From positions 1 through 58,654 of IMG/VR virus record IMGVR_UViG_3300043775_001123: a stretch of DNA of 58,654 nt. The stretch is one strand, 5' to 3'. The stretch is from a virus (Duplodnaviria > Caudoviricetes). How positions within the stretch are numbered: position 1 is the first letter of the stretch; each line of letters begins with the position of its first letter. Below are positions 1,944 to 58,654 of the stretch, piece by piece. A program made the translations under genes and the position numbers. Under the pieces are notes generated by a model that was not told where the DNA came from, did no database searches, and worked only from the letters and a program-made list of their open reading frames with translations.

Positions 1944-3530
1944 TTATTCCTTCCATTTTAAAGTTGTATATTTTCCGTTAATAATGTGTATGTTTTGAAC
2001 CTTTCCTCCTGGATAAATTACAGCATTTGAATTCATCCAACTACTTGGTCCATTATTGTACCCAACTCTTAGGTGAGTTAAAGTTCCTACTACAACAGCA
2101 CCATCTTGCCTTCTTGGTGAATGACTATGTCCTGTAATAGTTTTGGTATTTAAATTCTTAAATTGAATTATACCTCCTCTTGAACCATTAGTTCCAAGAT
2201 GTCCGTGTAAACCACATTCAATACCTTCTACTATATAACTTTCATTAATACCTAAGCAATAAACATTATTAACTTGTAGCTTTTCAAGGTATGTTGGTAT
2301 AACTCCTTTAGAATCATTTGCATCAATCATCATATGTGACAACCTTAGATACATATCCTTATTGTTATTCTTTCTCCAGTCATTATCATTCAACCATCTG
2401 TCAAGGAACACATCGTGATTACTCTTAACCATAACAAAGTTATAATCTGAATGTTCCTCAAAGAAGTCTAACATATCATTAAGTTCTTTTTTAATAGAAT
2501 CAGAACCATCTTCCTCCCTCTTTAATAATTCAAATGGTAAATTCTTTTCGTGATGTGAAATGCTATGCCCATTGAAAACATCGTGTAAGATTATATTGTC
2601 AGTGCAATTTAATCTATTAGCCATTTCAAATGAAACATTTAATACATCTTCGTTTGTTTCGCCTAAGTGTAAATCTCCAAATACAATAGCAGAAGCTCCA
2701 GAATGTAAGTGTATTTCTTGGTTTTCTACTAACACGTCAAGATCATAAAATGAACCATCATTATTAGCGGAAACTTGTCTTATATGAAAGATACCGCCAT
2801 CTAATTCTGCAATTACAAAACCATACGAATGATGAAACTCTCCTTTCTTCCCTGACTTTGTGTCTGTATAATTAGGTTTAGTTACAGCGCCAGTAGTCAT
2901 TAATAATTTATTAGGGTATCCATCAAGAACAGGTAAAGATTCGAAGTGCAATCTAGGGTGTCCTACAACACAACTATCTAAAGCAGTCAATGAATTAAGA
3001 CCAGATAAAGGAGTTGATGCAGTAGGTTGAACCTTAACATCTGAAGCTATTGTTAAATATTTGTGAATGTTATGTCTATTAGCGTCTAAATACGGAACTA
3101 CTAACTTATCCCAACACATAGATTTTTCTTTCTCCTGGTCTTGTATATTTTTACTAGCGTATAAAGATGTAGGGTTTTTATATCTACCAGCTATAATATG
3201 TATAGATGCATCAATTGATTTAGCATAAACCTCGATATTCTTTAAAAAATCTTCATTAACATCTGTATCAGATTGCGCCCAAGATATTATAAATCTATTC
3301 TTCTTTTTGTCATACTCTCTTTTTTGAGCGTTTGAAAATTCATCAGATATTTCTTCTTTTTCAGATAAACCAATTGCTTTTAATTTATTAGAAAATACCC
3401 TCCTTAAATTATCATTGTAATCAACACCTGATTCTTTACAAGCATTAATGCAAGACTGAGTTATATTGCCAGTCTTTAAGTACTGTTCTTTAACAACACT
3501 TAATAAGTGGTCGTTTATACTACTCTGCAT
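1944..3530 (-). CDS. T5 A1-like protein with C-terminal calcineurin-like metallophosphoesterase (putative nuclease)
   Basis: RFIISWAQ, QPTASTPLSGL, TTGAVTKPNY..KSGKKGEFHHSYG, IRQV..DGSFYDL recall T5 A1; GDLH, HD, NHD, HGH, GHSH metallophosphoesterase motifs. Confidence 0.7.
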   Translation of the reverse strand: MQSSINDHLLSVVKEQYLKTGNITQSCINACKESGVDYNDNLRRVFSNKLKAIGLSEKEEISDEFSNAQKREYDKKKNRFIISWAQSDTDVNEDFLKNIEVYAKSIDASIHIIAGRYKNPTSLYASKNIQDQEKEKSMCWDKLVVPYLDANRHNIHKYLTIASDVKVQPTASTPLSGLNSLTALDSCVVGHPRLHFESLPVLDGYPNKLLMTTGAVTKPNYTDTKSGKKGEFHHSYGFVIAELDGGIFHIRQVSANNDGSFYDLDVLVENQEIHLHSGASAIVFGDLHLGETNEDVLNVSFEMANRLNCTDNIILHDVFNGHSISHHEKNLPFELLKREEDGSDSIKKELNDMLDFFEEHSDYNFVMVKSNHDVFLDRWLNDNDWRKNNNKDMYLRLSHMMIDANDSKGVIPTYLEKLQVNNVYCLGINESYIVEGIECGLHGHLGTNGSRGGIIQFKNLNTKTITGHSHSPRRQDGAVVVGTLTHLRVGYNNGPSSWMNSNAVIYPGGKVQNIHIINGKYTTLKWKE

Positions 3531-54371: not shown

Positions 54372-57300
54372 ATGATTCAAGATCCAGAATACGTAAAAAA
54401 AGTACATAAAGCATTAACTGATAAAGTAGATGGTTTTAATAAAAGTTTAGAGGAATTTTCTGCTTCATTAAATGATGATAAATACGTAAGCAATGTATAT
54501 AAGGCTTTGAGTGATAAAATTGATGGATTCAGTAAAACTCCTGAACAATTCAAGTCATTAGTATCTTCACCTAAACCTCAAAAAAAAAATTCAAATTCTA
54601 CTGGAACGACTCCTCAAAAGGTGTCAGCTACAAAACCGCAACAGAAAACTACTACTTCGGTTGGAGAGAAACCAGTAAAAACTACGCCTTCGGGTTCTTC
54701 GTTTGGAGGAAGTAATAATATGTATGGTGGTTTAAATGTATTACCACCTGCACCACAGCCTTCTTCTAAGAAACCAATCCCTGTTATGGGAGAGGACATT
54801 CAATTAACTACTAAAAAAGATGGTGTTAAAACAGATATGTCTGGAAATGTTATTTTAGATACAACAAAAAAAACACTTGGTATTCGTGATGAAGATAAAT
54901 TTAAGGAATATAAGCAAGAATTAGAAAAAGTAGACGATAGGTTAGATGTGGCTATAAAAGAAAAAGTAAGCCCTAGAATATCTTATGAAAACTTAAAGAG
55001 CGAGTTAGATGAGTACGAGTTCTCTGATGTTATAAAAGAAGGTTTAAGAAATACTTATAATTCGTTAATAGGAAATCCATTATCTATAATATCTTCTAAA
55101 TTAGGTTCAGAAAAAGATTTTTATATAAAAAAAGGAAATCCTTTAGAAGAACAAAAAAAGAGAGCTGAAAAAGAATTTGCCGAACAAGGCGTGTCTGTGT
55201 CTCCTCAAAAAATACAAGAGAGAGCGGAAGAACTATATATACAAGATGATGTATTAAAGCAAAAACTATCAATTACTGACGAGTTTTTCAGTTCTATAGA
55301 CAAAGGACATCTTACACAAAAACAATTAGAAGTAGTAAAAAAAGCTGAGGTATTTAATAAAAATCAAGAAATAAAGTCTAAGTATCTACTATATAGAGAA
55401 AATGACAGCAAGATAAACGCTTTAAATAATTTCATATTAGAAATAAATAAAAAAGGAGCTGCTACAGAAGAAGATAAAATAGAATACAAAAGACTTTTAA
55501 GTTTAGCTACTGATGCTGAAGAAACAAATAAACAATTATCAACTCAATTTGCATCTGATTTAGAAAAACTAAAAACAGACGAAGAGAAATTAGAATTACT
55601 TAAATACAATTACAATGATTTAGAGGCTTTTAATACTTTTTTAGCATCAAATATCACAGGACTTTTAGGTGGTGGTTTAAAGCTTTTAGGTGAAACAGAA
55701 GATTTTTTACTTGAAAAAGTTGGATTAGAAGGTGAATCTATTAGAGCGAACGCATACAAAAGTATTGGTGGAGAAATGATTTCTGCTTCAGAAGAAGCTA
55801 AAAAGCCTTTTAGAGCTATGTCTATTGAAGATATAAATAACTTAGGCGATCTTGGTTCTTGGTTTACTCAAACTTCTTCATCTACATTAACTAGTGTTGC
55901 CGCTATGTATTTTGGTGGTGGATTTGGTCTTACTGCTTTATCTATGGGGGCTGGAGGTCAAAGAATAGCCGAACTCGAAAAAGAAGAAGCTTTAGGTTTG
56001 ATACCAAAACAAAGTAATGGAGAAAAGGTATTGGCAGGGTGGTTTTATGCTGGAGCTAGTTATTTTCCTGAGAAGTTTGGTACGTTTAGATATTTACAGA
56101 ATTTAAGAAAAACATTTTCAACATTAAATTCTGAATCAAGAAGATTATTTAAAGACTCATTTTTAAAGTCTTCTGCAAAAATAGTAACGTTAACAGGTGG
56201 TCAATCTTTTATTGAAGGAGGCGAAGAGGGTGTTACATCTTTAATTGAAGACGTTACAGATATTTATTTAAGCGGAAAAGAATTGAATAGCAATGATATA
56301 GCTAGAAAATTCAAGAATGCAACAGCTGCTGGTATAGCTAGTGGAGGCACTATGTCTTTAGGCGGTAATTTATCGTTAATGTATTATAGCAACTTAAATC
56401 AATTAGCAGTATCCAAAGATATAAAAGAAAGCAGAAGATTGTTAATTGAAATGGAATCCATAACAGAAGAGTTGAATACAAATACATCATTACTTGATTC
56501 TGATAAGGTTATATTAAATAGAAAATTAAACGACTTAACTGAAAAGTTATTTGAAAATGTAACTAAAACAGAAAACAATGTCGGAAATATATCTTTAAAT
56601 GAGATTTCTAAAGTTATAGATATAAATAACGAACAAGCTAAAATTAAAGAAGAGTATGATAATTTAAGAAGTTCAAATATATCTAAATCAATAAAGGATT
56701 CTAAAGTAAAAGAATTAGATGCTAAATTTGTTTCACTAGAAGCTATAAGAAACGACATTCTTAATGGTAAATATAATGTATTATCATTTATCACAGAAGA
56801 AGAATCAACTAAACTTAAACTACAAGCTGCTGAAGAATTAAAGGCAGAAGCTATAGCAAGTGGCATTGAAGAAGGCAAAGTAAATATTAAGGAAGAAGAA
56901 ATAACTAAAAGAGCAATAGATAACTATGAAAAACAATCTAAAGAAACTACAGTCGAAAAACCCACTAAAGAAGGACCTACAGGGCAAGAAAACGTACAAG
57001 ATGTTACCTCAACACAAGGACAACAAGATAAAGTCGTACAAGAAAAAATAGACAACGTAGATAATAGACCTATTTCAGAAAGACAAGCAGAGGCAGAATC
57101 TAAAATAAAAAGAAAAGATTTATTTATTGGTGTTGGAGAATTCTCTACAGAACTTGGAGGTAGCGATAAGGCTGCTGTTCCTGTATCACATAACGAGAAT
57201 AATGGCATTGAGGTTGTTGAGTATGCACATCCAGACACTGGTAGTATAGATGTTATTGTTACTGGAAAGTCTGAAAACGATTTTGTTGGATTTTATCGTG

Positions 57301-58654
57301 TTTACGAAAATGGTAAGCCTACTAATAAATGGAGTTCTAAATTTGAAAATAAATCAAGAAATAAAGAAGACTTTAAGACAATGATTTCTGGAGTTCAAGA
57401 ATTATTACCAGAAGGACATATGTATACTGAAAAAACAAGTATATCAACAGATGGTTTAAGAGTTTGGAATCAACAATTAAGCAAAGGTTACGAATTACAA
57501 TACGATAAAGACGGAAATATACTAACCAATACAGTTTTTATAAACGGAGATGCTATTGAAAATGAATTAGGAGTAGATGTTAATCGTGGTAATTTTGATA
57601 GTATAAGGGTTACAGAGGAAGAATTTGAGAATGTAAAAAAAGCACTTATACCGTATTTAGAAAAACTAGGATTAAACGAAAATAACATTAGATTAAAAAC
57701 AAGTAAAGCGCCTAAAATACCTGGTTATAATCAAAAATCATTGGTAGAAATAGACCTGCCTATTTTAAAAAAGTCACAAAACGAAACAAAAAACAAGGTA
57801 GAGGAACTAAGACAGCAAGAGATAGCTGAATTTAATAAAGAGGTTGAAAACCCTCAAGACTTCATTACAGATGGTAAAATAGATGCTAAAAAAGTATCCG
57901 AATCTGACAACGCAAAAGCTAAGGAGATTTACGCTAAGTATGATAAGTTACTAAAACCGTTATTAACTAATATTAAAACACAAGAAGATGCCATTCAAAA
58001 GCAAAGCACAAGTGAAGGCGTGTTACGCCAAGAACAATCCGAAATGGGATTGCAAGAAGTGGTCGAAGGAGACCAAGAACCTGAAGTCACTACCGAAAAA
58101 ATTGAAAAAGTAGCTAGAATATCTGGTGTTAAACCTAAAAACATAAAGGGTTTATACGATGTAAACAGAAAAATGTTTGGTCAAAACAGAGTTAAGGCAT
58201 TAGCTTCTGCTGTAATTATGGATAGAATGATAGGTTCTATGGCTAAAAGAGCTAATGTAGATAAGTCTGAAATATATAAAAAAATAAGGTTTGAAAAATC
58301 AAGTGAAACAGACTTACCTAAAGGTATTAAATTTCAAGTAGATGCTTGGCACGGAAGCCCTCATTTTTTTGATAAATTTACAACTGAAAAGATGGGTACT
58401 GGAGAAGGTGTTCAAGCATTTGGTTGGGGATTATATTTTACAGAAATTAAAAGTATTGCTGAACATTACGCTAAATATTTGAGTTCTCCTTTATTTGAAG
58501 ATTTTGTTAGTAAATTACAGAAAAGTAATTTATCAAAATTGTCTATATTGAATATATCTGAATTTTCAGAATATTATTCGTACGATTATGACAAAGTATT
58601 AAATGCTTTAGAAAGAGAACAAGACAATGAAGCTATAAAATACATTAAAGAAAA
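54372..58654 (+). CDS. Giant ejection/polyvalent protein (more than 1427 aa, 3'-truncated) with ART-like domain
   Basis: Open from ATG 54372 to the window end (absent from track because no stop); N-terminal duplicated YVxxVxKALxDKxDGF; Gly/Ala hydrophobic segment; WHGSPH.FDKF...GTGEG.QAFGWGLYF near 58340-58440. Confidence 0.8.
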   Translation, partial: MIQDPEYVKKVHKALTDKVDGFNKSLEEFSASLNDDKYVSNVYKALSDKIDGFSKTPEQFKSLVSSPKPQKKNSNSTGTTPQKVSATKPQQKTTTSVGEKPVKTTPSGSSFGGSNNMYGGLNVLPPAPQPSSKKPIPVMGEDIQLTTKKDGVKTDMSGNVILDTTKKTLGIRDEDKFKEYKQELEKVDDRLDVAIKEKVSPRISYENLKSELDEYEFSDVIKEGLRNTYNSLIGNPLSIISSKLGSEKDFYIKKGNPLEEQKKRAEKEFAEQGVSVSPQKIQERAEELYIQDDVLKQKLSITDEFFSSIDKGHLTQKQLEVVKKAEVFNKNQEIKSKYLLYRENDSKINALNNFILEINKKGAATEEDKIEYKRLLSLATDAEETNKQLSTQFASDLEKLKTDEEKLELLKYNYNDLEAFNTFLASNITGLLGGGLKLLGETEDFLLEKVGLEGESIRANAYKSIGGEMISASEEAKKPFRAMSIEDINNLGDLGSWFTQTSSSTLTSVAAMYFGGGFGLTALSMGAGGQRIAELEKEEALGLIPKQSNGEKVLAGWFYAGASYFPEKFGTFRYLQNLRKTFSTLNSESRRLFKDSFLKSSAKIVTLTGGQSFIEGGEEGVTSLIEDVTDIYLSGKELNSNDIARKFKNATAAGIASGGTMSLGGNLSLMYYSNLNQLAVSKDIKESRRLLIEMESITEELNTNTSLLDSDKVILNRKLNDLTEKLFENVTKTENNVGNISLNEISKVIDINNEQAKIKEEYDNLRSSNISKSIKDSKVKELDAKFVSLEAIRNDILNGKYNVLSFITEEESTKLKLQAAEELKAEAIASGIEEGKVNIKEEEITKRAIDNYEKQSKETTVEKPTKEGPTGQENVQDVTSTQGQQDKVVQEKIDNVDNRPISERQAEAESKIKRKDLFIGVGEFSTELGGSDKAAVPVSHNENNGIEVVEYAHPDTGSIDVIVTGKSENDFVGFYRVYENGKPTNKWSSKFENKSRNKEDFKTMISGVQELLPEGHMYTEKTSISTDGLRVWNQQLSKGYELQYDKDGNILTNTVFINGDAIENELGVDVNRGNFDSIRVTEEEFENVKKALIPYLEKLGLNENNIRLKTSKAPKIPGYNQKSLVEIDLPILKKSQNETKNKVEELRQQEIAEFNKEVENPQDFITDGKIDAKKVSESDNAKAKEIYAKYDKLLKPLLTNIKTQEDAIQKQSTSEGVLRQEQSEMGLQEVVEGDQEPEVTTEKIEKVARISGVKPKNIKGLYDVNRKMFGQNRVKALASAVIMDRMIGSMAKRANVDKSEIYKKIRFEKSSETDLPKGIKFQVDAWHGSPHFFDKFTTEKMGTGEGVQAFGWGLYFTEIKSIAEHYAKYLSSPLFEDFVSKLQKSNLSKLSILNISEFSEYYSYDYDKVLNALEREQDNEAIKYIKE
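56926..57051 (+). CDS. Nested +1-frame basic peptide (MKNNLKKLQSKNPLKK..., 41 aa)
   Basis: ATG with A-rich context (ATAACTATG) inside an acidic linker of the giant gene. Confidence 0.35.
   Translation: MKNNLKKLQSKNPLKKDLQGKKTYKMLPQHKDNKIKSYKKK
57988..58113 (+). CDS. Nested +1-frame MPFKSKAQ-type small basic protein (41 aa)
   Basis: MPFKSKAQVKACYAKNNPKWDCKKWSKETKNLKSLPKKLKK; resembles a common stand-alone phage family (from memory). Confidence 0.6.
   Translation: MPFKSKAQVKACYAKNNPKWDCKKWSKETKNLKSLPKKLKK

Follow-up and report, generated by a model that had tools for sequence, protein, structure and literature searches.

Potyvirus P3N-PIPO is a conserved overprinted open reading frame (ORF) without a start codon of its own, which is expressed as a trans-frame fusion through the addition of one A and was discovered by comparative genomics. 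In phage T7, a −1 ribosomal frameshift within a virion gene produces two proteins, 10A and 10B, with a common N terminus. The present study concerns a related arrangement in the virus record IMGVR_UViG_3300043775_001123 (Caudoviricetes), a sequence of 58.6 kb (58,654 nucleotides) with 30% G+C, the whole of which is referred to below as the window. Near the 5′ end of a giant virion gene in the window, a run of ten A residues (A10) is followed in the −1 frame by a short, aromatic-rich ORF. Judging from comparison of the sequences, we consider it probable (about 0.85) that the run and this ORF form a conserved cassette for programmed recoding where the giant virion gene (ejection/polyvalent type) begins, in an Elemovirus-like phage of Flavobacteriia.

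Several described systems resemble the cassette as they are presented in the review by Atkins et al. (2016, PMC5009743). In Thermus thermophilus dnaX, a 9-nucleotide (nt) A/T run within the ORF is associated with heterogeneous mRNAs and with a full-length and a short product (tau and gamma) sharing a common N terminus. The alternative frames of dnaX stop almost at once, however, so that its short product is merely truncated, whereas the −1 frame of the cassette encodes a conserved, predicted folded domain of ~41 to 45 amino acids (aa) and the site lies near the 5′ end of a phage giant virion gene. The potyvirus case is described in the same review (PMC5009743) as a short ORF within a polyprotein ORF, reached by polymerase slippage at GA6; it differs from the cassette in belonging to a plant RNA virus with a viral RNA-dependent RNA polymerase and an A6 run, rather than to a double-stranded DNA phage with a DNA-dependent RNA polymerase and A10. 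Shigella spa13 and mxiE, again as covered there (PMC5009743), share with the cassette slippage by a bacterial polymerase early in an ORF, a defined fraction of product with another C terminus (25 to 30% for spa13), and a place in an injection machine, but their slippage lengthens the product, whereas in the cassette a short tail would take the place of more than 1350 aa. Phage lambda gpG/gpGT is likewise presented (PMC5009743) as a pair of structural-module proteins with a common N terminus made at a set ratio. In lambda G/GT and in T7 10A/10B, the shift occurs near the 3′ end of a short ORF, gives a longer minor product, and uses heptamers, not 10-nt runs, and the gene families are others.

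The kind of system is therefore known (Thermus dnaX, spa13, and P3N-PIPO), whereas this instance appears to be undescribed in the searchable literature: a search on slippage and frameshifting in Flavobacterium, crAss-like, Elemovirus, and Panino phages, with supplements and subscription journals outside its coverage, found no description of the site. In the record of Flavobacterium phage elemoC, the giant gene is annotated as a single unbroken coding sequence (CDS), and in Maribacter phage Panino the site is misannotated.

RESULTS

Frame layout around the A10 run

The following features of the window are referred to throughout.

54372 to 58652, plus strand: giant virion gene (0 frame), 1427 codons from the ATG at 54372, open at the 3′ end of the window.
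54372 to 54581, plus strand: N-terminal leader of 70 codons, common to the giant protein and the predicted short product, holding a tandem duplication.
54580 to 54589, plus strand: A10 shift site, holding the in-phase heptamer A_AAA_AAA; no other homopolymer in the window reaches 10.
54581 to 54715, plus strand: −1 frame ORF of 44 codons, KKK followed by a 41-aa aromatic, Gly-rich, basic tail, ending with TAA at 54713 to 54715.
54591 to 54712, plus strand: dual-coded segment, read in the 0 frame as a linker of low complexity (S, T, P, G, A, or Q at 30 of 41 positions) rich in rare NCG codons.

The 0 frame crosses the run as CAA AAA AAA AAT and continues into the Ser/Thr/Pro/Gly-rich linker. 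The −1 frame is closed by a TAA at 54572 to 54574, two codons 5′ of the run, and the −1 ORF contains no start codon. An earlier note on this DNA, made from the sequence alone, had placed A10 at 54580 to 54589, described the −1 frame as open to 54715, and predicted a product of ~114 aa, and each of these descriptive details was correct, the trans-frame product being predicted to contain 70 + 44 = 114 aa. The 42-aa string that it quoted from the −1 frame is present with the 14 F/W/Y residues claimed, and of the 41 residues that follow KKK, 14 are aromatic. Its remark on rare 0-frame codons was also borne out, with 6 NCG codons found among 41 where 0.95 would be expected from window usage (Poisson P = 0.00045).

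Taken by itself, this sequence goes only partly beyond chance. At least one A10 or T10 run occurred in 90 of 100 dinucleotide shuffles of the window (mean, 3.52), and the window has one, so A10 alone is not beyond chance. AAA accounts for 66% of Lys codons. The openness of the −1 frame is unusual: when synonymous codons for the same 0-frame protein were resampled according to window usage, the −1 frame was open with P = 0.02. A T-ending codon before TCN, ACN, or GGN reads TTC, TAC, or TGG in the −1 frame, and for this reason the aromatic richness of that frame is partly automatic. Our assessment is that the significance of the locus rests on comparative data and not on this single sequence.

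Directly after the −1 stop (54698 to 54722), the 0 frame contains a Shine-Dalgarno-like GGAGGA and, 9 nt further on, an ATG. This pair was considered as a restart site and rejected, as the aligned near lineages have no ATG there.

The run and the −1 ORF are conserved in homologs

Homologous loci were collected by four routes, all independent of the run: a search with the 0-frame protein; a search with a 17-nt motif located 77 to 89 nt downstream of the run, which gave 21 matches (11 homologous and 10 unrelated); database proteins matched by a profile of the tail; and leader-only matches (L036, L039, L040, and L044). After duplicate contigs were removed, 20 distinct loci were tabulated. A10 was present in 11 of the 11 homologous motif matches and in 0 of the 10 unrelated ones.

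The run was A10 in 18 of the 20 loci and A11 in the other 2, always at the junction of leader and linker. It sits in two codon phases, NAA AAA AAA AAT and NNA AAA AAA AAA G, and in varying residue contexts (QKKN, EKKN, SKKKV, VKKKG, and others), so that its length is kept across the loci though codon phase and encoded residues change. The leader was in frame with the giant ORF in all 20 loci, including both with A11. After the run, the −1 ORF stayed open for 44 to 48 codons in 17 loci and for 21 to 33 codons in 3, and the probability of such openness under synonymous resampling was 0.0008 to 0.075 for the 17 long tails. A −1 stop was found 0 to 17 codons upstream of the run in each locus, and 18 of the 20 −1 ORFs contained no ATG, GTG, or TTG. 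Cultured phages also carry the cassette: a 211-nt segment including the run matched 68 elemo isolate records, 67 of them at ≥99% identity, and 53 of the 60 matches listed were at 100% over the full segment, A10 included. The check on homologs proposed in the earlier note, for a conserved A run followed by an open, aromatic −1 frame, was therefore positive, and the homologs also share the point at which this frame closes.

The +1 frame after the run was open for 1 to 72 codons and was considered as a source of a third product. This candidate was rejected; a recurrent length of 39 codons in six lineages is explained by a TAG within the conserved −1 motif (as read in L032).

The −1 frame is the frame under selection

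Among the near lineages, the DNA was conserved up to the −1 stop and diverged directly after it, the stop being built by different codon pairs. Over the last 20 codons in these lineages, the −1 frame had a ratio of nonsynonymous to synonymous differences (pN/pS) of 0.59, compared with 1.22 for the 0 frame. All three codon positions of the 0 frame varied alike there (8, 9, and 7 of 20 columns), and some 0-frame replacements involved Gly, Ala, or Glu while the −1 frame held Gly through synonymous changes. For the whole tail in 10 lineages, pN/pS was 0.75 (−1) versus 1.20 (0 frame), with the −1 value lower in 41 of 45 pairs.

Protein-level comparison gave a larger separation. A profile of the −1 tail built from 10 near loci scored 29.3 to 47.8 bits on 7 of 10 distant −1 tails, while the 0-frame profile reached at most 6.4 bits on the matching 0-frame segments and cross-frame controls at most 0.4 bits. 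Pairwise BLOSUM alignment gave mean z scores of 12.6 for the −1 frame versus 3.2 for the 0 frame, the −1 frame being the better in 45 of 45 lineage pairs. When the tail profile was run against six-frame translations of 431 kb of loci, 31 rows had an E value of <1e−6, all of them cassette −1 ORFs, and the next had an E value of 0.17. In 6 of 10 lineages, NCG codons were enriched at P < 0.05. A search of 1.84 billion representative proteins with the tail profile gave 6 matches. Four of these, from four lineages, were proteins of 98 to 124 aa in which a leader is followed by KKK[KR] and then, at the very C terminus, by the tail.

The dual-coding signal predicted in the earlier note was thus seen in the homologs: the 0 frame lacked a pattern of purifying selection, and the −1 frame was conserved as protein. 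This supports the interpretation given in that note, a shift at the run that yields a short isoform. By these comparisons, it is the hidden −1 frame and not the annotated 0 frame that is selected in this segment, and the −1 ORF under purifying selection is one that can be reached only via the run.

Route of the frame shift

Under standard decoding, expression would yield the leader, the linker, and the giant protein. In a fraction of expression events, decoding would shift to the −1 frame at A10, and the product would be 114 aa long, comprising the 70-aa leader, KKK, and the 41-aa tail with its predicted four-stranded β-meander. The shift is placed at the run because the selected frame, which has no start codon, begins at this slippery sequence. 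The favored route would be slippage of RNA polymerase with the addition of one A, toward which the balance tips modestly because the run is always at least 10 nt in any phase, matching the length of the RNA:DNA hybrid, and because no downstream stimulatory structure was found. The locus also has sequence features expected of transcriptional slippage sites, namely, an A/T run of about 9 nt or more within an ORF and a length conserved independently of phase and encoded residues. Bacterial RNA polymerase is described by Atkins et al. (2016, PMC5009743) as slipping efficiently on 9 A or T residues, with an RNA:DNA hybrid of 9 to 10 bp.

The same product could instead arise during translation, with ribosomes slipping −1 in tandem or sliding on A_AAA_AAA while the mRNA stays A10. 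The window and both codon-phase variants contain an X_XXY_YYZ heptamer, A_AAA_AAA, in the 0-frame phase, ribosome sliding on iterated AAA codons is reported for Escherichia coli by Koutmou et al. (2015, PMC4363877), and dnaX uses A_AAA_AAG according to the recoding review cited above (PMC5009743). Such a shift would need no more than a heptamer, whereas each of the 20 loci has a run of at least 10, and this length persists when the phase changes. RNA folding downstream of the run in four lineages gave minimum free energy z scores of +0.03, +0.41, −0.48, and −0.76 relative to shuffles, with no helix by the run common to them (pseudoknots being outside the model). Because there was no RNA structure beyond that of shuffles, a classical stimulated −1 frameshift is not supported. 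Ribosomal shifting is thus a possible route, though not the one we expect.

Variation at the DNA level was also considered, in which replication slippage yields A11 (or A9) genomes and the tail is made from these variants. The four database proteins from four lineages with the tail in frame with the leader would fit this explanation, as would Panino, deposited with A9, and the elemo records that begin at the run (at least 7 of the 60 listed). On the other hand, the leader was in frame with the giant ORF in 20 of 20 loci and in the 53 elemo matches at 100%, the in-frame proteins are singletons on short contigs, the Panino sequence is from Nanopore reads only, and contigs of four DNA sequencing runs cross the A run with no gap listed there. 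We consider this explanation improbable.

If there were no product at all, the −1 frame would be a by-product of a linker rich in Ser, Thr, and Gly with T-ending codons, and the run simply Lys-Lys in preferred codons. The chance expectation for A10, the 66% share of AAA, and the F, Y, or W codons created by T-ending codons are all compatible with this idea, but the −1 frame was better conserved in every one of the 45 pairs, even where the 0-frame linkers were unalignable, the position of the −1 stop was kept via different codons, NCG enrichment recurred in 6 of 10 lineages, and the tail profile had no other match in the six frames of 431 kb, which together make the absence of a product very improbable. 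A noncoding element (an RNA structure or a regulatory or recombination site) is the least credible explanation of the conserved nucleotides since, although the near-lineage block is conserved as DNA and marks a mosaic junction, its fold energies are like those of shuffles, distant lineages keep the −1 motif despite diverged DNA, and conservation ends exactly at the −1 stop.

Observations that weigh against a recoding cassette

Programmed recoding at the run, our preferred reading, also has to be set against several observations that count against it. The search of sequencing runs listed no RNA run with the sequence, the contigs found being DNA only. The four proteins with the tail in frame are singletons on contigs of 586 to 1855 bp and may be homopolymer miscalls; as stand-alone genes they were set aside, and we took them to be run-length variants or miscalls. 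Three lineages have shortened tails of 21 to 33 aa, with profile scores of −0.4, 0.5, and 9.7 bits, so that either the last strand can be dispensed with or the cassette is in decay in these lineages. Panino was deposited with A9. The pN/pS signal is by itself modest (0.75), with sites near saturation. A test for use of the same codon at conserved 0-frame residues was mixed, with a Fisher p value of <0.05 in 3 of 6 pairs (same-codon counts of 11/18, 15/17, 9/17, 15/23, 23/26, and 20/26 versus a background of 57 to 61%); this was probably owing to unreliable global alignment of the low-complexity linker, and the frame-specific tests (pN/pS, profiles, and alignment z scores) were used in its place. 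Finally, the DNA of the block is nearly identical among the near lineages, and in other samples the contigs are interrupted immediately 5′ of the run, so that part of the nucleotide conservation may come from recombination and not from selection.

In Panino (PP540027, L046; locus 3001 to 3400), A9 breaks the frame between the leader and the giant ORF, the latter being annotated as a "tRNA methyltransferase" with a downstream start, and an antisense CDS, PANI_CDS0070, probably spurious, is annotated over the leader. As this genome was sequenced by MinION (Nanopore) only, a homopolymer undercall is likely.

Other records are interrupted at the run. In at least 7 of the 60 elemo matches listed (MT497087, MT497103, MT497109, MT497125, MT497085, MT497115, and MT497081), the linear record opens with the first base of A10 or the base after it, so that these assemblies break at the homopolymer. 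Contigs of four other lake or soil metagenomes matching window positions 54569 to 54777 break 5′ of the run (54574 to 54580) and have unlike sequence upstream, and the summed depth over the run-plus-overlap segment is several-fold above that of the flanks. These breaks and the depth therefore point to a module common to phages with different leaders, with the run as a mosaic junction. Two loci, L026 and L029, come from the same 99.6-kb contig (IMGVR_UViG_3300046002_004363), which carries the cassette and giant gene in two differing versions and probably arose by chimeric or concatenated assembly of two related phages.

The leader is variable

The repeat of ~31 aa noted earlier at the N terminus is real: a repeat finder placed its copies at 54388 to 54457 and 54481 to 54550 (70 nt, 73% identical, spacing of 93 nt or 31 codons). 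The accompanying description of the part shared by the two products as a domain needs correction, as the leader is not a conserved domain; across the 20 loci, it ranges from 18 to 83 aa and falls into several unrelated-looking sequence types. As the alignments indicate, conservation resides in the A run and the tail and not in the leader, for which AlphaFold2 predicted three helices in P0003, an elemo-like relative.

An internal tandem duplication of a short motif is apparent by eye in every leader type, including those of 18 and 30 aa, with motifs such as KYPEY, FNDF, DPLGI, and KPWEKYS each occurring twice in leader types that are otherwise unalignable. The repeat finder confirmed only the duplication in the window leader, the repeats of the other leaders being from visual reading.

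Predicted fold and candidate function of the tail

The database proteins that carry the tail in frame made it possible to fold the entire short form. For that of P0003, AlphaFold2 predicted the three leader helices, a disordered Lys stretch, and four β-strands with predicted local distance difference test (pLDDT) values of 85 to 89. With a 20-row alignment, the same four-stranded β-meander was predicted for the window tail (mean pLDDT, 83.6). Besides KKK, the long tails are basic, with 6 to 11 K+R residues versus 1 to 4 D+E residues.

Structural searches gave matches of a general nature. With the window tail, the best VIA-align matches were transmembrane β-sheets, namely, NspA (Z score of 5.1; root mean square deviation of 3.2 over 44 residues) and, at Z scores of about 4, gasdermin pores, SAM50, and BAM/EspP, together with Pur-alpha (Z score of 4.8); all are generic β-sheet matches within the background range. 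This weak resemblance is the sole hint of the membrane-active tail suggested in the earlier note. Foldseek with the P0003 model found nothing in the PDB at an E value of ≤0.001, and its sole match in BFVD was the N terminus of the elemoC giant protein itself. A search of the ESM Atlas with the tail gave no usable match, and in Pfam neither the tail nor five leader types had a match above the cutoff. A complex prediction with four copies of the P0003 short form scored 0.18 (mark, 0.42), which is not evidence either way.

In P0008, a large repeat protein of 658 aa, the tail profile weakly matched (E value of 7e−4) a repeated F-I-Q-W-R-x-x-D-D-N-P-T-W motif. This motif is similar to strands three and four of the tail and may represent a distant structural analogue. 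For P0005, no locus was found in viral contigs, and tblastn with P0007 against the phage collection gave no match.

Within the virion module, the giant gene occupies the part that encodes ejection proteins. We propose that the short protein is a small virion- or ejection-associated protein, coexpressed with the giant protein and acting with it in assembly or ejection. As to the tail itself, our best guess, offered with considerable doubt, is an oligomer of membrane-inserting β-hairpins; a basic aromatic nucleic acid-binding sheet is the alternative candidate. A fuller scheme, which we consider unlikely, would make the tail the working part of a new kind of small ejection protein and would have the four amphipathic, aromatic, Gly-rich strands of each subunit oligomerize into an outer-membrane β-barrel or sheet serving as an anchor or a conduit for the giant polyvalent protein at infection, its amount being tied to that of the giant protein through 5′ overprinting and polymerase slippage.

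The giant gene and its genomic context

The virion module of the window encodes TerL, a portal protein, a crAss-type muzzle protein, and a T7 gp14-like protein. Upstream of the giant gene lie the crAss-type muzzle, T7 gp14-like, and 453-aa genes, according to PHROG and Pfam context. Pfam matches beside the giant gene were PF25731 (53.1 bits) and PF25729 (54.3 bits) against a cutoff of 27 bits, and PHROG matches near it were portal (E value of 5e−140) and TerL (E value of 1e−158). The giant gene is thus adjoined by muzzle, portal, and TerL genes, as in a crAss-like or Elemovirus-type virion module.

In Flavobacterium phage elemoC, the homologue of the giant protein is the 3694-aa "structural protein", and the closest cultured relatives of its gene are the Flavobacterium elemo phages (66 records, ~30% identity). 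In a check for effector domains of polyvalent proteins on the first 1427 residues, which are those present in the window, ART-PolyVal (18.6 bits) and DUF3990 (17.1 bits) both scored below their own cutoffs. When 3 kb around the A10 site was compared as DNA with the phage collection, no match was obtained.

At the other end of the window, positions 1 to 1437 hold a 5′-open ORF of 478 codons without a Pfam match. If the genome is circularly permuted, this ORF could be the 3′ part of the giant gene, whose elemoC homologue has 3694 aa.

DISCUSSION

Two practical consequences follow from the cassette. Conservation of homopolymer length in different codon phases marks a recoding site, which may serve as a rule for finding others, and long-read assemblies can be expected to break genes of this kind. 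The phages concerned are common in lake, soil/wetland, and Baltic metagenomes and have cultured representatives (68 elemo isolate records). For this group, the cassette would add a conserved protein-coding gene that is absent from the annotations examined (elemoC and Panino), and it would constitute a bacterial-virus counterpart of P3N-PIPO-type overprinting.

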